Shown here piece after piece: positions 470-13,061 of a DNA stretch of 64,000 bases (positions within the stretch are counted from its first letter, which is position 1; each line of letters opens with the position of its first letter). The stretch comes from Candidatus Latescibacterota bacterium (lineage in GTDB: Bacteria; Latescibacterota; UBA2968). The DNA is taken from positions 7,808,001 to 7,872,000 of the forward strand of contig OZ240241.1 in the NCBI GenBank assembly GCA_965198115.1. Direction: 5' to 3'. The position numbers and the translations under genes were made by a program. The notes below the pieces were generated by a model. The model saw only the letters and a list, made by a program, of their open reading frames with translations, was not told where the DNA came from and did not search any database.

Positions 470-506
470 GGAAGGATTCCACGTTGACGAATTCGCTACG
501 CGGCAT
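468..506 (-). pseudogene. N-terminal stub (MPRSEFVNVESFL) of the gene downstream of DUF4007, probably an SspC/BrxC-like ATPase, interrupted by IS630
   Basis: The ATG at 506 overlaps the DUF4007 stop, and the frame is cut after 13 codons at the IS630 TA site. Identity is inferred from gene order only. Confidence 0.4.
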
Positions 507-1404
507 TCCGGCTCTCCCGGTCGATTCGGTCGTAGTAAAAAGTGAGCCAATCCAGCGGGACACGTCTTCGCACACGGACCGTCCGGTTGCCAGCCAGTCC
601 TCCGATCTGGATCTGTCTTTCTCCGAGTTCGGCCTCCGCACTGGATACGGTTTCGAACAGCGATTCCGGCGTCATCAGGAACGCCCGAGCGGGGCCTCCC
701 GCAAGACGGGCGGCGTCGACGATCGGCAGCGTCAGGAAGTCGCTGTCAGACTCGCCCACACCACTTGCTGTGGAGATGGCATAGGCCACGATCTCGGCCG
801 GCACGGACTTCGGCCCTTGATTGACTTGATAGTAACCCGAGGCGCGGAAGTAGCCCATCAGTCCCAGTTCTCTAAACGGGCATTCGATGGCGTCTTCAGG
901 ATCCACTGCTTCTACCGGGATCTGTCTCGCGTAGAACGAGAGTAGGCAGCTGATGTCCCGTTCAAGCGTGTTCACGCTCGGGATCTTCGACATGGTCACA
1001 TCAAGGTGCCGGCGCAGTGTCTCGACGCAAACCGACTTCTCGAAACGGGTCAGGTTAAAGTGGTTGAAGAACCAAGCCCAGCTCTCGGCGGCCGAGGCGG
1101 GTTGGACGAGGTTCGAGTGCAACGCCCATAGGGTTCCTGGCTCGTTGAAATACGGGTCCCGTTCCCAGATCAGCTCGCCGAGTGTCGTGGACGCCATCGG
1201 GGCGTTTCGCTTCGTGCTCTCCCGGTCCGCAAGCCGTGTCACGAAAAGCCAGTGCCTGATCGACCGCCCCATGTTCTTGCCGACGCCCAGCCAGTCGTGA
1301 TTGTAAGCGTCGCTCAGCAGCTCCGGCTGCTCGATTAGGAGTCGAAGCCCCTTGTGGAGCCAGCCCTCGCGGACGGCGAAGGTTTCGTGGCCGCTGAACG
1401 CCAT
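496..1404 (-). CDS. sspB: DUF4007 family protein, SspB-like (phosphorothioation-associated nickase)
   Basis: N-terminus FSGHETFAVREGWLHKG, LGVGKNM..SIRHWL, DPYF.EPGTLWALH and CPFRELGL are DUF4007 hallmarks; it lies directly downstream of a cysteine desulfurase. Confidence 0.8.
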   Translation of the reverse strand: MAFSGHETFAVREGWLHKGLRLLIEQPELLSDAYNHDWLGVGKNMGRSIRHWLFVTRLADRESTKRNAPMASTTLGELIWERDPYFNEPGTLWALHSNLVQPASAAESWAWFFNHFNLTRFEKSVCVETLRRHLDVTMSKIPSVNTLERDISCLLSFYARQIPVEAVDPEDAIECPFRELGLMGYFRASGYYQVNQGPKSVPAEIVAYAISTASGVGESDSDFLTLPIVDAARLAGGPARAFLMTPESLFETVSSAEAELGERQIQIGGLAGNRTVRVRRRVPLDWLTFYYDRIDRESRNAA

Positions 1405-1405
1405 A

Positions 1406-2599
1406 CTATCCTGTCACACTTTCGGTTTTCCGCCCAATGCTCGACCAGAATGAGCGTTGCTGATTGCAGATCTTTACTATGCTCCCCACCGCGTAGTCGA
1501 CCTCTTCCTTGGTGTTGGTCTCGGAGAAGCTAAACCGCAAGCTACTGTAGGCTTCTTCTTCGGATAGTCCCATCGCCCGCAGCACGTAGGACGGTTCGGG
1601 CCGCTGGTTCGTGCAGGCGGAGCTCTGTGAGCACCGAATGCCGACTTGGTCAAGTTGCGCAACGAGGGCTTGACCGTCGACGCCATCGAACAAGAGGTTC
1701 GATGAGTTGGCGACGCGATGGTCAGAGGCGCCATTGATCCGAATTCCATCCATTTTGCTCATCAGGTTCGATTCGAAGGCGTCCCGCAGCGCCCCGACGC
1801 TTTGCGAGTAGTCATCGAAGGACTTGGCGCGGTGATCCGCCGCTGCGCCGAATCCCACAATGCCTGGCACATTTTCCGTACCGGGACGGACTCCTCGTTC
1901 CTGGTTTCCGCCAAACCCAATCGGTTGAAGATCCCGTAGATTGCGAGCGCAAACCGCTCCAACGCCCTGCGGTCCGTGGAGCTTGTGTGCGGTCACCGTA
2001 AGGAAATCTGCTGCGACTTCGGATCCCTCGATCGAGAGCTTACCGAGTGCCTGAGCAGCATCCGTATGGAACGGAATCTCCTTCTCCCGGCAGAGCCTGG
2101 CGATTTCTTCAACAGGCTGAATAACGCCAGTCTCATTGTTTACCCACTGGACAGACACGAGCGCGACGCTCTCGTCGATGGCGTGTGTGACGTCGGCCAC
2201 GTCAACCTGCCCCGTCCGGCCTACGGGCAAGATCGTGACTGGAATGCCTAACGTCTCGAGGGCTGCCGCGCATCTTAGAATCGATGAGTGCTCGATGCTG
2301 GTCGTAACGAGCCGGCAGTTCAGAGGGTCCGCGCCAGCGCGCACCCTCTGAAGGAGCTGGACGAGCACCAGGTTGTTCGCCTCAGTGCCACTGCCAGTGA
2401 ATACGATCTGATCGACCAGCCTCGCCACAGCCCCTCGAGCTTCCCGAAGAGCGACCCGGGCCCTGTTCCCTCCCGAGTGAGAGCTGGAGGGGTTGCCGAA
2501 TTCGTCGCCGAGAACCTGTAGCATCGCCTCGCGCACTGCAGGTAACGGCTTCGTTGTCGCATTGTTGTCCAGATACACTTCCGGCACGTAGCCAACCAC
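1406..2599 (-). CDS. sspA: Cysteine desulfurase (IscS/NifS class V PLP enzyme), SspA/DndA-like by context
   Basis: YLDNNATT, FGNPSS, GTEANN, HTDAAQ, AHKLHGPQGVG (PLP lysine), RPGTEN, SSACT catalytic Cys. 1-nt gap to the DUF4007 gene. A few residues appear missing at VARLV-DQIVF. Confidence 0.85.
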   Translation of the reverse strand: MVGYVPEVYLDNNATTKPLPAVREAMLQVLGDEFGNPSSSHSGGNRARVALREARGAVARLVDQIVFTGSGTEANNLVLVQLLQRVRAGADPLNCRLVTTSIEHSSILRCAAALETLGIPVTILPVGRTGQVDVADVTHAIDESVALVSVQWVNNETGVIQPVEEIARLCREKEIPFHTDAAQALGKLSIEGSEVAADFLTVTAHKLHGPQGVGAVCARNLRDLQPIGFGGNQERGVRPGTENVPGIVGFGAAADHRAKSFDDYSQSVGALRDAFESNLMSKMDGIRINGASDHRVANSSNLLFDGVDGQALVAQLDQVGIRCSQSSACTNQRPEPSYVLRAMGLSEEEAYSSLRFSFSETNTKEEVDYAVGSIVKICNQQRSFWSSIGRKTESVTG

Positions 2600-4600: not shown

Positions 4601-6018
4601 GGCTCTATCCGGGTTTCTCAACGGTGAAACTATAGAATGACAAGGTCATAGATCGTTCCCTACGCTTGGTTGTGTGTGTAGGACAATCAAAGCGAAGGGG
4701 GTGCGACCTATGACCGGGAGCAGATTACTATCGAAACTGCTGAGATTCAAGGGGTTCCGTGTTGTCAGCTGGTGGTTTGAGGGGAGAAGCTGCTTCGTCA
4801 TCGCCGTAAAGCCACATAAGAATGGTTGTTGTTGTCCGGAGTGCGGCCGTCGAGGTAAAATCGTCCGCACAATGCCCCATCCGCGTCGGTGGCGTGACAT
4901 TCCGGTGTGCGGGTGGAGGGTCTGGCTTCTCTACCATCCTCGGGAGATTCGGTGTCCTACCCACGGTCGTGTGGTCGAGGAGATTCCGTGGGCGGAGCGG
5001 TTCTCTCGGGTGACGTATCGCTTCGAGTATGCCATGCTGCGCTACTGCCAGACCATGACGCAGAAGGCGGCGTCCGAGTTGCTGCGCATCTCTGCCTCGA
5101 CGCTGTCGGATCTCCTTCACCGATCCATCACGCGGCTTCGTGAAGGTCATCGTATCCGAGGGCTCAAAACCATCGGGATCGACGAGATCTCCTACGCCAA
5201 GCGTCACAGGTACGCCACGCTCGTTTACGATCTGGACCGCTCCTGCGTGGTGTGGGTTGGCCGCGGCAGGGCGCGTAAAACGATCGATCGGTTCTTCACA
5301 GAGGCTCTCAGTCCCTACCGGAGATCCAAGATCGAGTGGGCCTGCTGCGACATGAGCGAAGCTTACATCGGAGCCATCCAGGAACACTGTCCGAATGCCA
5401 AGCTGGTCCTCGATCGCTTTCACATCGTCAAGGCTCTCAATGCCGCCGTTGACGAGGTCCGTAAGGACCAGTGGCGTAAAGCTGCCCCGGATGAGCGCAA
5501 AGCCATGAAGGGCCTCCGATGGCTCCTCTACCGGCACTCAGCGACACGCTCCAGAGGGGATACTCGGACACTCAAAGCACTGGAGAAGGCGAACTACCGA
5601 ATCTATAGAGCCTGGAGACTCAAGGACGAGTTCGAGCAGTTCTGGGAATACAAAGCGCCCTGGGCTGCCGAACGCTTCCTGAAATGCTGGACGACGTCCG
5701 CACTCAGAAGTCGACGTGAACCCCTGCGAAAGTTCGTCAGGACCCTGCGACAGCACTTCTTCGGCGTCCTCGCATTCGTGAACACGCGTCTTACCAACGC
5801 CATCGCCGAAGGCCTCAACCGAATCGTCCAAATCGTCAAGAACCGAGCCAGCGGATTCCGCACACTCGACGCATTACGATATGATCTTCCTTACCGTCGG
5901 AGACATAAACATCCCTGAGCAGATTCCGAAGAGGTTCCGCACACTCTAACCGCGCCCCCATGCCAGGAACCACGGCACCTTCACCCACTTCATCTCGTTG
6001 AGAGATCCGGATATAGCC
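4601..6018 (+). mobile_element. ISL3-family IS, copy 2 (transposase 4674..5918 with a 2-bp deletion near 5875)
   Basis: Near-identical to copy 1; 8-bp TSD AAAAAGAA (4593-4600, 6019-6026); GCATTACGAT versus GCATTCAACGAT in the other copies. Confidence 0.95.
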
Positions 6019-7824
6019 AAAAAGAAAGCCTCATCAACATAAACTCCCCATGATCTTAGCGTCTTGATCGCCCTAATGTCAGCCGGCGCGTTTCTTGCAG
6101 TGACAAGTGCAATCCTGACAGGTGAGTACTCTACACGAACCGGTAACCTTTCCTGCAGACGTGCAAGCTTTTTCAGGAACGAAGCGTAGGGGCCTTCACC
6201 AAGCGGCTCATCCTCTGCCGAGGCTTCTGCCTTATGAAACGCCTCGATCCCCTCGGTCTTGTAGACAAGTTCGCTGGCTTCGTCGAAGAGAACCGCATCT
6301 CCGTCAAATGCAATTCGAACCTGAGTCTCTGACAACTGAGCCATGTCCTCGGGTGGGGACCGAAGCACTGCTGCAGGACACAGCCGACTATCTATAACCT
6401 TCTGAGCGTCCTCAACGCTTGTAGTAAGGAAAAGGTCCACATCAAATGGTTCTAAATAGTCGACCACGGACTCGCCGGCAGTGAAGGCTGATCGCGTTAT
6501 GTTTAACTGATTCTGCCTTATGACATTGAGCACCCGAACGCCTGTCTCAGGGCTGTTCCTGGAAAGCACAACGACCTCAGCAAGGGATGGCTCGCCATCC
6601 GGTTTGTCTTTGTTGAGATCAAGCAGTGCTTTGGCCAACGGGAACCCTGTACCAGGGGCCAAGGCCTCATTCTCGCGCTCTTGCATGTAAGCGCGGTAGT
6701 CCTCTATAGCTTTGTCGCGATCTTCTCCATACATCTCCTGGAATGCATGATCCGCTTCGGCAAGATCAAACAGAGCAGTGGCTGAGATTCCGACGACCAG
6801 CGTATCGCTAAGGTCAAGCGGCACTTGGTGCTCCCTCGGCTCCATCATCCTCATCCGCGTAGATGGGAATCTTGAAGCAACGATGACCGTACCAGTGAGC
6901 CCAGATTCGGCGTCCCGAACGCGTCGTGATCCACCGAGGATACGTGTAGTCCACGATCTTCCGGCGGGGGTGTTGGAGGAAGCTCGGCGGCCAGCGGCCA
7001 GGATGACCCTGTGGTTTTGGCGCGGCTTCGGAAGGTCCAGCGTCCGGAACCGCTTCGCCACCCGCCGCCGCAGGCCGACGCGCGGATGGAATCTGTAGAT
7101 ATTGTCGGGTGTCCGAGACCGATCGGGTTTCTTCTGGTTGAATTCCCTGCGTTCTTAGTAGTGCTGCATTCGTAGCCGCTCCTACCACTTATCTTGGTGC
7201 TTATACCGGATGCCGACGGGGCTTTTCGGACCAGCTCGTCCTTTTCCGCTTCGGACGGTCTGGAAACGAAGCACGGAACTCCGCCTCCGTTCCGCTGCGC
7301 AAAGCGTTCATTGACGTCCAGTCGGTCGAGACCAAGAAGATTTCCGGCTGGGAATTTTTTATTGTTCCGATGAACAGTCCGCCTCGTTGGCGCTGCATGG
7401 CTTATTCTCCCATGTTCTCCAGACAAGACCACGGTGTTGCCCCACCAGTCGCCATTATCGGGCAGCAGGACTATGCCGCATCGGTACTCGAAGAACGACA
7501 ATACGTCGGCCTCAACGTGGTCGGTGCTTTCCCGAACGTCGAGGGTTCTTGACGGGTTTGTCCTCTGTGGGAGGTTGCTGTACGGTTACGCCTATCTCCA
7601 GATTCTTGACCCACATTCGGCCATTGCTACTCACGACAGTGTGATGGAGGGTTCGGCTGGAAGGGCGGGCTCCACCTTGACGTGTCCCGCCGTCCTGTCT
7701 ACACATTCATAGCGCTTCTCAGGTATAATCGTAGGTGCTTACTTAGCAAATTGCGTTTTTTTCGGGACAACTTATGCTGTAATACACGACACTTCCCAAG
7801 TGAGATCCATCTCAGGGAGATGAT

Positions 7825-9225
7825 ATGGCCCAGATTACCAAACCGGCAATTCGAGAGATTGTTGAAGATTTCGCAAAAGAGATCAAGGAGCGAAGAAGAG
7901 AGACGGCCAAACCATCCAAGGAAGTCATCAACTTCCGTGGCGACAAACTGAACGGGATTGAGCGGGAAGTGTCCGTGGTCCCTATCGATCTCCTTCGTTT
8001 TAGGAAGGACAACGGCCGGATCGCGTCCGATGTGATTGACTACGAGCGCAATTTCGGTCCTTTGGACGAAAAGGACGATCACGCCCAATCCGTTATCAGA
8101 GAGTTTCTGGAAAAGAAGGATCCGGAGCGCACCGAGGCTTTGAACAAGTCAATTGCACACGGTGGCCAAAATGAAGCCTCTATAATCACTTGCGACGGCT
8201 TCTTGATTAATGGCAACCGACGCAAGATGGTAATGGATCGACTCCATCACGAAAACCCGGCGGGAGACAAATACCGTTTCATGAAGGCGGTCATTCTTCC
8301 AGGCAAGGGTGATCCGGGTGGACCACCGACGTTGCTTGAGATAGAACAGATCGAGAACCGTTATCAGTTGCAGAGTGATGGCAAGTCAGAGTACTACAGG
8401 TTCGATCGCGCTCTATCCATAAAACGAAAGATAGATCTGGGATTCTCTCTCGAAGAACAGTTGCTGGATGATCCTGCTCACGCCGGTTCAACAAAGCCCG
8501 ATCTCTTAAAAGCGATAGCACGCTGTCAAAAGGACTACCTTGACCCCCTTGACCGGATAGACCATTACTTGGAGCAGTTCAACCGTCGGGGGCTCTATAG
8601 GACTATTTCAAAAGGCATAGCTGATCCAGACGGTCGCTGGCAGGCGTTCATTGACTATAGCAAATCCTACCGTGTATTCACCAATCCTAAACGCAGGATG
8701 GAGATAGGATTAGAGGAAGACGAGATTGGAGATATCGAGGAAGCCGCCTTCGATGTGATACGTCTTCGATCAGTTCCCAATATGCCTAAGGTCCACGTGA
8801 TCATGCGGAACCTTCCGAAGTATCTCGGAACAGAGGAAGGTAAGAAGGCCATCAAGAAGATAGTTGATGAGGTCGATCCGATCCTGCCTGCCGAAGAGAG
8901 CATTGATTCGGAGGGAAAGCCCCTTTCGCTGGAAGTTGCGGACGCGAAATGGGCCGCGAGGAGCCAAGAGTCCATTATTCACAATCTCAGGGTAGCCTCC
9001 CAAAGCTTCGAGACTCAGAAAGAACGAGAAACTCCAATCGAACTTCTCCGTGAAGCCTTCAAGAAACTGAGCCACCAGAATATGGATCTGAGCCTGATCA
9101 ACAACACAGATCTTCCTACGGCCCGCGAGATCGCGTCTGATATATGGAAGAGAGCGCAGGAGCTGGACTCCGACATCTTCAACTATGAGAAGAACCTCAA
9201 GAAGCTTGCGAAGAAGGGATCATGA
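7825..9225 (+). CDS. ParB/Srx-like N-terminal domain protein, 466 aa (gene 1 of putative defence operon)
   Basis: LNKSIAHGGQNEASIITCDGFLINGNRR resembles the ParB/Srx box (GxRR); long helical C-terminus; AGGGAG RBS. Confidence 0.7.
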   Translation: MAQITKPAIREIVEDFAKEIKERRRETAKPSKEVINFRGDKLNGIEREVSVVPIDLLRFRKDNGRIASDVIDYERNFGPLDEKDDHAQSVIREFLEKKDPERTEALNKSIAHGGQNEASIITCDGFLINGNRRKMVMDRLHHENPAGDKYRFMKAVILPGKGDPGGPPTLLEIEQIENRYQLQSDGKSEYYRFDRALSIKRKIDLGFSLEEQLLDDPAHAGSTKPDLLKAIARCQKDYLDPLDRIDHYLEQFNRRGLYRTISKGIADPDGRWQAFIDYSKSYRVFTNPKRRMEIGLEEDEIGDIEEAAFDVIRLRSVPNMPKVHVIMRNLPKYLGTEEGKKAIKKIVDEVDPILPAEESIDSEGKPLSLEVADAKWAARSQESIIHNLRVASQSFETQKERETPIELLREAFKKLSHQNMDLSLINNTDLPTAREIASDIWKRAQELDSDIFNYEKNLKKLAKKGS

Positions 9226-11114
9226 TCCAAATCCTTGACGAAGAATCCAGGCTACTCATTGACTGCGAGGAAGGAGACCTGGCTCCCCGTCACGCCAGCC
9301 AGTTGAGCTTCTGGGGATTCAGCCAGTCTTCTCCAGGTCACTTTATCGGGCCTCCTGGGGACTTGCAATCCCTAGGGAAGAAGGTCATCGACTACTTGGG
9401 ACGCTCCAACTGTCTCTATGAGTTAGCTGGCCACGTTGAGGAGCTGTTGGCAGAGCAACAAGAGGCTGAGCAGCATTACCAATCGGCTCGATCCAATGGC
9501 AGGCAACTGAAGGATGCGGACCTAAGCGAGGAAGACACTTCAGACTTTGTCTCCTTTCTCCGAACTCAGATCCCTCGATCTCTCAAAGAGCACCAACTGA
9601 AAGCAGCCCTGCACCTGTTGACCGTTACCAATGGAGCAAACTTCTCTGTGCCGGGAAGTGGGAAGACGACGGTGGTAGTATCCGTTTTTGAGAAGCTCAG
9701 ACAGCAAGGTGAGGTCGACTCACTTTTTGTCGTCGGTCCGCCCTCCTGCTTTGGTCCGTGGCGACACGAGTATGGCGAAGTGCTTGGACGTGAACCGTCA
9801 TTCGAGATTCTTGCTGGCGGCGATATCGAATTGCGTCATTCGAAATACCTAATCACTCGAGAATCGGCGGCGGATCTCTATTTGACGACGTTTCAGACGC
9901 TGCAGCGTGATTGGGAGCAAGTGAAGCTCCTCTTCGAGACGCAAGGTGTAAGGTTTTACTTTGTGGTCGATGAAGCACATTATGTAAAGCAGCCTGGGGG
10001 AGCTTGGGCAAACGCCGTTCTTGAAGTTGCCCCGCTGGCTACAAGGAGAGTTGTACTTACTGGAACTCCTTTCCCTCACAGCTTCACCGATGCTTTCAAC
10101 CTCTTCGATGTGATCTGGCCAGAGGCCAACCCCATACCCGAAGAAACTCGTCACAGGATCGAGATTCTCACCCAGAAGAAGCAGTACCACGAGGCCGCCA
10201 CTCATCTTGATAATCTTATAGGACCACTCTTCTATCGTGTCCGGAAGTCTGATCTCGGTCTTGCCCCTCAGATATTTCATCCTCCAACACAGATCCAGAT
10301 GAAGGAGAACGAAAAGAAGGTTTACGACCTGGTGCTGGATAGAATAGCCGAGATATCCTCATCAGACTATATGCGAAATATAGATCTGCTCGTTAGGTTG
10401 AGAAAGGGACGAATGATGCGAGTCCGGCAGTGCCTCTCATATTCTGCACTACTTGGGAATGAGGTGACGGACTACAACGAGGACTTGCTAGAGGGAGAAA
10501 TGTCCCTCGCTGACATCATCAAGCACTATGACGAGATCGAGATGCCTGGAAAGGTTGAGTATCTCCTTGAGCTTGTCAGAGGCCTGCGGGAGCGGGACGA
10601 GAAGGTAGTCATTTGGTCTAACTTTATCCGAACACTCGATATGCTTCGCGATGCTATCGCAGAGATTGCCCAAGTGAGACTTATTTACGGGGCAACTCCT
10701 GTAGAAAAGACAGGCGTCGAAGAAGAGCTCACGAGAGACGAGATAATTCAGGAGTTCGTTGACCCTGATAGCAAAATCGATGTATTACTGGCGAATCCGG
10801 CAGCTTGTGCTGAGTCGATTTCCCTCCACAAGACTTGCTCAAATGCTATTTACTATGATCTCTCCTACAATTGCGCTCAATACGTGCAGTCTCTCGATCG
10901 AATCCATCGTGTTGGTGGTTCTGAGGACAAACCCTCACACTACTACTTTCTTCAGTATGAGAACACGATTGAGCCCGATATACTAGAGAATGTGCAGCGG
11001 AAGGCTCAGCGTATGAGCGATATCATCGATGAAGAATACCCGATCTACTCCCTCGATATGTTCGGAGATGAGGACGAAATCCAAGCCTATGAGCGTATCT
11101 TTATCCAGCGATGA
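9222..11114 (+). CDS. SNF2-family SF2 helicase/translocase
   Basis: Walker A SVPGSGKT, VVDEAH, LTGTP, KVVIWS, motif VI QSLDRIHRVG; ATGA overlap with gene 1. Confidence 0.9.
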   Translation: MIQILDEESRLLIDCEEGDLAPRHASQLSFWGFSQSSPGHFIGPPGDLQSLGKKVIDYLGRSNCLYELAGHVEELLAEQQEAEQHYQSARSNGRQLKDADLSEEDTSDFVSFLRTQIPRSLKEHQLKAALHLLTVTNGANFSVPGSGKTTVVVSVFEKLRQQGEVDSLFVVGPPSCFGPWRHEYGEVLGREPSFEILAGGDIELRHSKYLITRESAADLYLTTFQTLQRDWEQVKLLFETQGVRFYFVVDEAHYVKQPGGAWANAVLEVAPLATRRVVLTGTPFPHSFTDAFNLFDVIWPEANPIPEETRHRIEILTQKKQYHEAATHLDNLIGPLFYRVRKSDLGLAPQIFHPPTQIQMKENEKKVYDLVLDRIAEISSSDYMRNIDLLVRLRKGRMMRVRQCLSYSALLGNEVTDYNEDLLEGEMSLADIIKHYDEIEMPGKVEYLLELVRGLRERDEKVVIWSNFIRTLDMLRDAIAEIAQVRLIYGATPVEKTGVEEELTRDEIIQEFVDPDSKIDVLLANPAACAESISLHKTCSNAIYYDLSYNCAQYVQSLDRIHRVGGSEDKPSHYYFLQYENTIEPDILENVQRKAQRMSDIIDEEYPIYSLDMFGDEDEIQAYERIFIQR

Positions 11115-12066
11115 TGACCCCTTTGATGGACTCACTTGGCGACAAGTCCTAACGTTAGTGCAGGTAGTCGAAGGAACGGATTACGACAATACAGAATACT
11201 TATCTCGAAGGTATCAGGAACAGGCTCCGAACTTTCCCCAAACACTGGAGTTCCTCCTCTGCATTTCTGAAGTCGGCGGCGAGACTTCCCGCCTCCGTTC
11301 TTTGCTTTCATCGCCGAACATAACGCAAGCGCAGTCCTGGATTATCGACAGACTCCTCGGCTTCAACCATGTTTATCGGAAAGAGATCGATAGATACTTG
11401 CAGAACTTCTCTGTCACAGAGGGTGAGCCACGAAATCATCCCGCCCCTGCGACTAGACACCTCCAGAGCAATGTCCGAAACTTTCTTATAGAACTGGGTA
11501 TAGTTCGACACAACATTGAATCAGATTACTACTACGTCACCCCGGCACACATCAGGATCTACGTTGCAGCAGAGGAGCGCGGAAAAAGAAGACTATCCCC
11601 CTCTAAGAGAGCGTCGTCACAGATAGAGAGAGAGGAACTCGGAACCGCTGCTGAAGAGAGAATAATGGAATACGAAAGGGATCGATTGGGAGCTGAATAC
11701 GGGGACCAGATAGAGCACATAGCGGCCGTTGATGCAGCTGCAGGTTATGATATTCGGAGCGTTACTGTTGATCCCTCCGGGAGCACCATTCCTAGATATA
11801 TAGAAGTGAAAGCGGTTCCGCTGGAGTTATATCGATTTTACTGGTCAAGGACAGAAGTTCTCACGGCGCAGAATCTTGGTGACTGGTATTTTCTGTATCT
11901 CCTACCAGTGTTGAGGGATGGCATATTCGAAATGAGCAAGTTGAAGCAATTCCGGAATCCTGCTCACTCGGTCCTGGCAGATCCGGACTCCTGGGATATC
12001 GACTCAGACGTTCTTCTGTGCAGCCTGAGAGAAGAAGCTGGGGAGCAAGGCAATGTCTCAGAGTAA
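11089..12066 (+). CDS. DUF3883 (NOV C-terminal, PD-(D/E)xK) domain putative nuclease
   Basis: LGTAAEERIMEYERDRL, AGYDIRS, RYIEVKA, FYWSRTE, YFLY. The likely ATG at 11089 overlaps the end of the SNF2 gene. Confidence 0.8.
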   Translation: MSVSLSSDDDPFDGLTWRQVLTLVQVVEGTDYDNTEYLSRRYQEQAPNFPQTLEFLLCISEVGGETSRLRSLLSSPNITQAQSWIIDRLLGFNHVYRKEIDRYLQNFSVTEGEPRNHPAPATRHLQSNVRNFLIELGIVRHNIESDYYYVTPAHIRIYVAAEERGKRRLSPSKRASSQIEREELGTAAEERIMEYERDRLGAEYGDQIEHIAAVDAAAGYDIRSVTVDPSGSTIPRYIEVKAVPLELYRFYWSRTEVLTAQNLGDWYFLYLLPVLRDGIFEMSKLKQFRNPAHSVLADPDSWDIDSDVLLCSLREEAGEQGNVSE

Positions 12067-13015
12067 ATACCTTATCCCCACTCATGATGAGCATTCGCTG
12101 GCCGAAAAGCCCACGAGAGCTCCCTTTGGCTACTATGGGGCCAAGCAGACAATCGCACAGAAAATAGTAAAGATGCTCCCTCCCCATAATGCCTGGGTGG
12201 AAGGATTCTGTGGTTCGGCTGCAATTACGCTGGCCAAGAAGCCGGTCCCGATCGAGGTGATCAATGACAAGGATAACCAGATAGTCAATCTTTTCTCCCA
12301 ACTCCGGGACAATTCAGAAGAGCTGCGCCGGGCAGTTGAACTTACTCCATATGCTAGAGAGGAGTTCGAGATCGCCCGAGACTATGTGGTAAACAGGGAT
12401 AGAGGGAGCCTCCCCCCGCTCGAACAAGCCCGCCGATTTCTGGTCGCCACGATGATGACAGTGAACGGAACTATTGGTACTCGTTCCGGGTGGTCATATT
12501 CTCAGTCGTATTCGAGATCTGGGCGAGAAGCTCGTGTCAATCGCTGGTGCAATCTGCCAGAAAGACTTGAGAAGGTGGTGGAAAGACTACGAGGAATCCG
12601 AGTTGAGAACAGAGATGCCTGTGAGATGGTCGAGCTATTTGAGGACCGGCCTGCAACCCTGATGTATCTCGACCCACCCTACTACACAAAGCGAGAACAC
12701 GACTATATCATTGATGCGCGAGACGAGGGGTTCCACAAGAAACTCCTAAAGGCGTGCCTAAAGTCTCGGTGTATGCTGCTAATCAGCGGATACCAGAATG
12801 ACCTCTACGATGAGCTGCTGACAGCAGAACGTGGCTGGTCCAAGAAGGAGATAAAAACTAAGACTCGCGATACCACAGGGATAGACTACTCTCGAACAGA
12901 AGTTCTGTGGATGAATTCGGTGTTCGAAAAAGCAAAGGAGTCCGAGAAGCTACCATTGAGACTTACCAAACGGGAGATATACGACCAGAAGATCAATCCG
13001 CCAAGGAAGCGCTGA
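12053..13015 (+). CDS. D12-class (Dam-like) N6-adenine DNA methyltransferase
   Basis: PFGYYGAK, VEGFCGSAA, EVIND, YLDPPY, LISGY, TEVLWMN; overlaps the DUF3883 gene by 14 nt. Confidence 0.9.
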   Translation: MSQSKYLIPTHDEHSLAEKPTRAPFGYYGAKQTIAQKIVKMLPPHNAWVEGFCGSAAITLAKKPVPIEVINDKDNQIVNLFSQLRDNSEELRRAVELTPYAREEFEIARDYVVNRDRGSLPPLEQARRFLVATMMTVNGTIGTRSGWSYSQSYSRSGREARVNRWCNLPERLEKVVERLRGIRVENRDACEMVELFEDRPATLMYLDPPYYTKREHDYIIDARDEGFHKKLLKACLKSRCMLLISGYQNDLYDELLTAERGWSKKEIKTKTRDTTGIDYSRTEVLWMNSVFEKAKESEKLPLRLTKREIYDQKINPPRKR

Positions 13016-13061
13016 CTCCCATCCCAACCAGAGCAAATGATGTCAGAATCCAATCTCCCCA

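Follow-up and report, generated by a model that had tools for sequence, protein, structure and literature searches.

A widespread ParB-SNF2 cassette with its own nuclease and methylase in a Latescibacterota genome, probably a distant cousin of AbiR

A 64,000-nt window from a Candidatus Latescibacterota bacterium (GCA_965198115.1, contig OZ240241.1, positions 7,808,001-7,872,000 of the forward strand; the whole genome is termed G000) carries a cassette of four genes, for a ParB-fold protein, an SNF2-family ATPase, a DUF3883 nuclease and a DNA methylase. The cassette is real and widespread; it represents a variant, so far without a name, of a kind that is known but not yet explained, and the word "undescribed" in the first-pass annotation of the window was too strong. 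By sequence comparison, it is probably a distant cousin of the AbiR system of Lactococcus lactis. With a probability of roughly 60%, it is an immune cassette resembling a restriction-modification (RM) system, in which the methylase would mark self DNA and a ParB clamp and motor would license the nuclease on unmarked DNA.

The four-gene cassette

The genes and one methylase feature are as follows (ORF, open reading frame; aa, amino acids).

7825..9225, + strand: ParB-fold protein P0001, 466 aa (ORF, predicted structure and alignment)
9222..11114, + strand: SNF2-family ATPase P0002, 630 aa (ORF, Pfam, intact motifs)
11089..12066, + strand: DUF3883/NOV_C nuclease P0003, 325 aa (ORF, Pfam, predicted structure)
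12053..13015, + strand: D12-fold (alpha-class) DNA amino-methyltransferase P0004, 320 aa (ORF, Pfam, DPPY)
12917..13012, + strand: C-terminal tail of the methylase, ending K-I-N-P-P-R, beyond the Pfam domain (motif count)

All four ORFs are free of stops, and successive ones overlap by 4, 26 and 14 bases. This layout had been described correctly in the first-pass annotation, as had the motifs NGNRR, GKT/DEAH, D..EVK and DPPY, all found in the four proteins. The noted AT-richness also holds: the GC content of the 5.2-kb stretch is 0.502 against 0.591 +/- 0.018 for the genome, the lowest value among windows of this size (1/1623). The cassette is single-copy in the genome. A contig of 4449 bases from an independent study (run X3) covers positions 8615-13061 gap-free, differing in 26 letters, and run X1, which may be the source sample, matches the cassette without difference. 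The lack of lesions over 5.2 kb had been considered telling. The genes are indeed intact, but their freedom from insertion sequences (IS) says little, because 57% of windows of cassette size (9543/16842) hold no multi-copy repeat.

P0001 has no above-cut-off match in Pfam, PADLOC or NCBIfam, the Pfam ParB family appearing only below threshold; sequence searches of solved structures with the gene give no match, and in the ESM Atlas the protein falls in unnamed clusters. Foldseek matches of its predicted structure (pLDDT 87) are weak (all E > 0.001), yet the ten top rows are without exception ParB, Noc or ParB-like. The model superposes on the ParB nucleotide-binding domain with Z about 10 and a root-mean-square deviation (rmsd) of 1.2-1.7 Å over about 90 residues, and on Noc with Z 10.1 and an rmsd of 4.0 Å over 202 residues, DNA-binding domain included; the structural match spans residues 39-337. 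The protein comprises a nucleotide-binding domain (residues about 48-186), a ParB/Noc-like middle domain (to about 340) and a helical C-terminal part. Residues N63, R65, Q115, D124, G130-N-R-R133 and E177 are invariant among 55 diverse relatives, and the family conserves GQxxP-like, GNRR and EN..Q motifs (boxes I-III); P0001 itself has an Ala at the nearly invariant Pro118. P0001 is predicted to bind a nucleotide; the nucleotide preference of the ParB fold is not predictable from sequence (PMC12704722; this and all other papers are cited for those parts that were accessible). P0001 shares the nucleotide-binding fold, the GxxR box and a middle DNA-binding-like domain with the ParB, Noc and KorB clamps, but the cassette has no ParA partner and box II reads GNRR. 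The proposal that the ParB-like gene encodes a sensor of the SspE/GmrSD (DUF262) type has to be given up: P0001 has no DUF262 match at E 0.1, and its top structures are ParB, Noc and KorB, with a DNA-binding middle domain. In one relative (L062:6693-9401), the ParB ORF extends over 902 codons, about 430 of them extra at the N-terminus, either a fusion or a chance frame.

P0002 matches the Pfam family SNF2-rel_dom (3.6e-16), retains the motifs GSGKT, DEAH, TGTP, ESISL and QSLDRIHR, and has no fused nuclease. P0003 matches NOV_C (DUF3883; 1.1e-11), and its model (pLDDT 91) consists of a helical and winged-helix N-terminal half followed by a PD-(D/E)xK half. The nuclease fold lies close to Holliday-junction resolvases (Z about 8), in a structure search whose Foldseek E-values are all > 0.001. 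None of the residues D221, E239, K241 and E256 varies among 56 sequences, and their spacing is that of the four catalytic residues named for the HmaA NOV_C nickase, which is needed for phage defence (PMC11232893). Here, the SNF2 and nuclease ORFs lie in different frames, and relatives likewise encode the two proteins separately. The predicted complex of the two proteins scores 0.00, which is counted neither for nor against.

Distribution and exchange of the methylase

A scan with the ParB alignment, one genome per species, gave at least 601 stretches with at least 469 confirmed relatives, of which the best 80 were retrieved. Because only the best-scoring stretches were taken, this set leans to close relatives; it nevertheless covers 19 named phyla, with five loci unassigned. 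The predicted synteny is conserved across genomes. SNF2 is present in 77 of the 80 loci (two others are cut by contig ends, and L074 lacks it), a methylase in 71 and the DUF3883 nuclease in 65. In each of the nine loci that show no methylase, the contig breaks off less than 3 kb from the ParB stop. Of the 71 methylase genes, 63 follow downstream on the strand of the cassette and eight lie elsewhere. What stays constant in the family is ParB, SNF2 and some methylase, and the four-gene set is one of its variants. In the window's phylum, 5/168 genomes have the ParB gene, each with a close D12 enzyme about 3 kb away, and 0/30 other genomes of the family have it. Its occurrence is patchy, and the cassette has spread horizontally.

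Fifty of the methylases are D12 enzymes and 21 are beta-class, never both in one locus. In a fast tree built from 63 SNF2 rows, leaving out those without a methylase or below 80% length, the methylase type changes seven times (shuffled mean 17.1), with at least four changes forced by strong branches; there are seven changes on the ParB tree and six on the nuclease tree. Exchange can occur between very similar cores. Between loci L047 (D12) and L054 (beta), the ParB N-domains are 75% identical, the SNF2 cores 79% and both N-terminal nuclease parts 78-80%. Given that the two methylase types are unrelated, never occur together and swap repeatedly, it is a methylase that is kept and not one particular gene.

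Probable kinship to AbiR and comparison with other systems

AbiR has been known since 2000, and its methylase, LlaKR2I, presumably belongs to a Sau3AI-type system. It is encoded on the L. lactis plasmid pKR223 and comprises AbiRa, AbiRb, AbiRc and the LlaKR2I methylase (PMC13064643, PMC13712998, PMC10925250, PMC3632139 supplement). AbiRa is sigma70-like, AbiRb is ParB-like and AbiRc combines a nuclease with a C-terminal SNF2 part; the system depends on LlaKR2I, in whose absence it becomes toxic (PMC13064643). It counts as an abortive-infection system and lowers phage DNA replication, by a mechanism that is unclear according to a 2026 review (PMC13064643). An AbiRb/AbiRc-like pair without a terminal domain and without AbiRa has been described in SAR11 (PMC13712998).

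P0001 matches 19 plasmid records, all from Firmicutes, at 23-30% identity over the N-domain. Among the related loci, a C5 methylase, ParB, a PLD-SNF2 fusion and a MutH/Sau3AI-like gene occur together in L083 and L086, and ParB and SNF2 accompany a sigma70-r4 protein in L085. The parts described for AbiR all stand together in L119, where a sigma-like gene, a C5 methylase, a ParB and a long SNF2 share 17 kb. In profile-profile comparison, the cassette and plasmid ParB families align over 362 columns (E 1.6e-32), and the cassette SNF2 profile matches the AbiR-like plasmid SNF2s at E 1e-74 to 1e-86. The P0001 model also matches PDB 5K5D (Z 9.2), the structure on which the 2026 review superposed AbiRb (PMC13064643). 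The cassette shares with AbiR a ParB-like subunit adjoining an SNF2 ATPase, nuclease activity and a linked methylase. However, its nuclease is a separate winged-helix DUF3883 protein, P0002 has no fused N-terminal nuclease, and its methylase has the D12 fold, whereas the AbiR-like plasmid loci carry C5 enzymes. Neither a PLD domain nor a sigma70-like AbiRa (two plasmid sigma-like proteins serving as stand-in queries) occurs in the 80 loci or in G000. Because the sigma-like gene and the PLD domain are absent, the cassette is AbiR-like and not AbiR, and it probably works like AbiR's core. The kinship rests on stand-ins for pKR223 AbiRb and AbiRc, taken from plasmid loci of AbiR's published anatomy. 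PADLOC matches of the AbiR-like loci include no AbiR model, and no protein named AbiRb is among the 120 matches listed.

The first-pass annotation had found no named system for this gene combination. This stands in so far as no PADLOC or NCBIfam system model fits the four-gene set, but not for the ParB-SNF2 core, which is homologous to plasmid loci of AbiR anatomy. P0001, P0003 and P0004 match none of the core models of DISARM, Zorya I, BREX and Dpd (DrmA-C, ZorA-C, PglZ/BrxC, DpdA), and P0002 matches ZorD, DpdE, DrmD and BrxH weakly, far below the NCBIfam cut-offs. The Hma system also combines SNF2, a NOV_C nuclease with the same four catalytic residues and a methylase-like gene (PMC11232893). 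However, Hma consists of an SNF2-NOV_C fusion (HmaA), a DUF1156 protein (HmaB) and a DUF499 protein (HmaC) (PMC11232893), while SNF2 and nuclease are separate genes in the cassette. The cassette moreover has ParB in place of the DUF499 ATPase and D12 in place of DUF1156; its match to the HmaA model reaches only 3e-9, and none of its four proteins matches HmaB or HmaC.

Type I and type III RM systems comprise a methylase, an ATP-driven SF2 motor and a PD-(D/E)xK nuclease, and have no ParB subunit. The first three components recur in the cassette, and some plasmid relatives lie directly behind type III Mod-Res; the cassette differs in having the ParB subunit and a replaceable methylase of the type II kind. 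In L082, L084 and L088, from plasmids of lactic acid bacteria and enterococci, the ParB-SNF2 pair follows a type III Mod(-Res), and no nuclease gene of its own is annotated. No description of the four-gene set was found within the openly accessible papers, a body of literature that leaves most subscription journals, bioRxiv supplements and the DefenseFinder models outside; the accessible parts of PMC10853773, PMC12839542, PMC3632139 (with part of its supplement), PMC6458302, PMC10925250 and PMC11529989 contain no account of it.

The methylase and its mark

P0004 matches the Pfam family MethyltransfD12 (2e-17), with DPPY at residue 207, and falls in D12 clusters of the ESM Atlas. Its earlier description as a Dam-like N6-adenine methylase does not hold as it stands. 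On the Dam model TIGR00571 it scores 55.5 bits against a cut-off of 114.85; the region matching the GATC-recognition hairpin of DpnM differs, a GATC-type hairpin being absent; GATC is not avoided (observed/expected 1.00 in 51 D12 cassettes, by codon-shuffled motif counts); and the best solved relative of the P0004 family is M.CbeI (7M6B; E 2.6e-12 over 22-302). M.CbeI, an alpha-class enzyme likewise annotated as a D12 adenine methylase and likewise carrying DPPY, has been shown to make N4-methylcytosine, m4C (PMC8616854, PMC3425538). However, M.CbeI is distant from P0004, and because DpnM, which makes N6-methyladenine (m6A), follows closely (E 6.6e-10, 8 bits below), either base may be the target. 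The position of three plasmid relatives behind a type III Mod-like gene argues against a cytosine-only view. The odds between m4C and m6A are about even, and the "adenine methylase" label of P0004 may be wrong.

The recognition region of the D12 enzymes is nearly invariant among the cassettes. Their tail motif, K-I-N-P-P-R, occurs in 48/50 cassette D12 enzymes and in 0/9 non-cassette relatives, making the tail a possible docking element. A docking tail common to both methylase classes was rejected, as the beta enzymes have none. The beta-class substitute carries SPPY and is closest to M.PvuII. Its plasmid relatives (52-56% identical) adjoin PmeII/EcoO109I-family nucleases in 3/3 loci opened; PmeII reads GGWCC (PMC8112702). 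The next-nearest D12 enzymes of the phylum adjoin SacI-family nucleases (three tested, two above the cut-off). The pair of D12 methylase and SacI-family nuclease (L104-L118) is common in two genera of the phylum (15/21 and 20/31 genomes, counted by methylase) and is unusually stable for a type II system.

Proposed mechanism and alternatives

In the RM-like reading, the methylase would mark a short site in host DNA. The ParB-fold protein would bind a nucleotide and load as a clamp on DNA without the mark, the SNF2 motor would move along or remodel this DNA and so license the nuclease, and the winged-helix nuclease would nick or cut it. This scheme is favoured by the conserved linkage and repeated exchange of the methylase, the catalytic residues shared with HmaA, the ParB fold with its intact GxxR box, the patchy spread, the low GC, the defence-like neighbours and the homologous pairs of AbiR anatomy. 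Moreover, close relatives of both methylase types serve ordinary type II RM systems, and AbiR, also built on ParB-like and SNF2 subunits, needs its methylase and is toxic without it (PMC13064643). The RM-like character that had been proposed for the locus is supported, while a DUF262-like role of ParB and a Dam-type mark are not. The ParB middle domain is the better candidate for reading the mark, because the D12 recognition region is near-invariant and the winged-helix half of the nuclease averages only 22-24% identity against 50% for the ParB middle domain, and because nine loci are nuclease-free. The nuclease winged helix was also considered as a reader following the methylase, but the domain identities do not support this.

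Several observations weigh against this scheme. First, no domain is clearly more alike among pairs of the same methylase type, and none is singled out as the reader; therefore, the two enzymes may share a single target site, or the core may not read sequence at all. For 51 D12 and 21 beta cassettes, codon-shuffled motif counts reveal general palindrome avoidance, with nothing that stands out as a target site (observed/expected in D12 and beta cassettes: GATC 1.00/0.71; GGNCC 0.82/1.0; GGWCC 0.76/1.08), and motif avoidance in the host genome is equally uninformative on the site. Second, in 9/80 loci a PNP-family nucleosidase gene precedes ParB and the nuclease is missing; L058 encodes neither of these two enzymes, and L074 lacks SNF2, so that cutting of unmarked DNA is not the universal output of the family. 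Third, some plasmid relatives (L085, L089) have no dedicated methylase beside the ParB-SNF2 pair, and AbiR itself is described as abortive infection and not as restriction (PMC13064643). Finally, the control for defence-like neighbours is small and drawn from one genome, and we infer the steps, their order, the mark-reading subunit and the AbiR kinship from genes and models. The nucleosidase variant (PNP/UDP family) is found in Bacteroidota: L065, L068, L070, L071, L073, L074, L076, L077 and L078.

Abortive infection restrained by the methylase is the strongest rival, although its probability is well below that of the RM-like scheme. Here, ParB-SNF2 would sense infection, for instance as unmarked replicating DNA or forks, and activate one of several exchangeable effectors, halting or killing the cell; the methylase would only quiet the complex or control expression, and a marked phage would gain no escape. 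AbiR is classed in this way, lowers phage DNA replication and turns toxic when its methylase is missing (PMC13064643). The effectors also differ chemically, being DUF3883 in 65 loci, a PNP nucleosidase in nine and a PLD-SNF2 fusion on plasmids, and the divergence of the nuclease winged-helix half (22-24% identity) contrasts with the near-invariant methylase recognition region. However, the methylase is kept in all 71 long-enough loci and replaced like for like, as in RM systems. The two explanations share most steps and differ in outcome.

A selfish addiction module, with the methylase as antidote, killing of the cell upon cassette loss and marginal anti-phage activity, is improbable. The patchy spread, low GC and varied neighbours of the 80 loci, with few recurring families, would suit it, as would the toxicity of AbiR without methylase (PMC13064643), but three costly subunits would serve where one nuclease would do. 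Anti-phage activity has been reported for AbiR (PMC13064643) and HmaA (PMC11232893), and the cassettes have neighbours that match defence models. Of 131 flanking ORFs listed, one lying over the ParB gene was dropped; at E 1e-25, PADLOC models match 17/130 (14 once three housekeeping-like matches are set aside), against 0/36 other ORFs of the window. A non-defence role in the DNA maintenance or partition of a mobile element, by ParB clamp, remodeller and structure-specific nuclease with a passenger methylase, would agree with the ParB/Noc fold of P0001 and the nearness of the nuclease fold to Holliday-junction resolvases (Z about 8), but is very improbable, as neither ParA nor another partition family recurs in the 80 loci, viral contigs held no relative by single-protein query, and linkage and like-for-like replacement make the methylase no passenger.

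A more far-reaching version of the RM-like scheme, speculative and rather unlikely as a whole, would make the family a distinct restriction class. The ParB sliding clamp would itself be the reader of self and non-self, loading only at unmarked sites; unrelated methylases (N4-C, C5-C, N6-A) would block loading; and the clamp-motor would drive plug-in effectors (DUF3883, PLD, nucleosidase). AbiR would be one Firmicutes member, and P0004 would write a cytosine mark.

Genomic surroundings

The genome has undergone a massive IS expansion: repeats with five or more copies make up 12.6% of G000, and three elements are present in near-identical copies, ISL3 with 228 and IS256 with 136 near-full ones and a third element with 77. 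The cassette had been described as flanked by IS elements and an ssp-like cluster. The ISL3 copies are there; the cluster consists only of sspA and sspB, which two ISL3 copies separate from the cassette at a distance of 4-7 kb, and is a duplicate from another genome site. The two genes (sspB and sspA, window 496-2599, - strand) sit between an IS630 piece and the two ISL3 copies and are a 98.6-99.9% copy of those at G000 C1:2696-4811, there followed by an ORF of 741 aa. The window sspA is 12 bases shorter than that copy, in frame, and a third, partial sspB lies at G000 C1:5649949-5650375. A link of sspAB to the cassette was rejected, SspA/B not being a recurring flanking family among the relatives.

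Upstream of the cassette, on the other strand, lies a 5'-nucleotidase gene (window 5946-7061, - strand) that matches the PADLOC candidate PDC-S08 (1.6e-102); its end runs into ISL3, and it looks truncated. In all four runs, contigs of other organisms cover a short stretch at 7170-7600, also upstream, at very high depth; a repeat or mobile element of wide occurrence may have left it behind. Immediately before the window, many IS copies surround a helicase-like ORF of 867 aa and a fragment resembling type III Res (G000 C1:7802799-7805402 and 7778957-7779709, assessed by eye only). The cassette may end a decayed defence island.

Significance

Despite at least 469 confirmed relatives, the family escapes defence inventories, because its hallmark ParB gene is modelled in none of PADLOC 2.0, Pfam and NCBIfam. 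A compact four-gene version with its own methylase makes the question of the AbiR mechanism testable, and natural methylase swaps are at hand in L047 versus L054, L050 and L079. If the RM-like scheme is true, ParB-fold switches would gain a defined role in immunity. The locus also teaches that an annotation as "adenine methylase" may mislead on the base that is marked.

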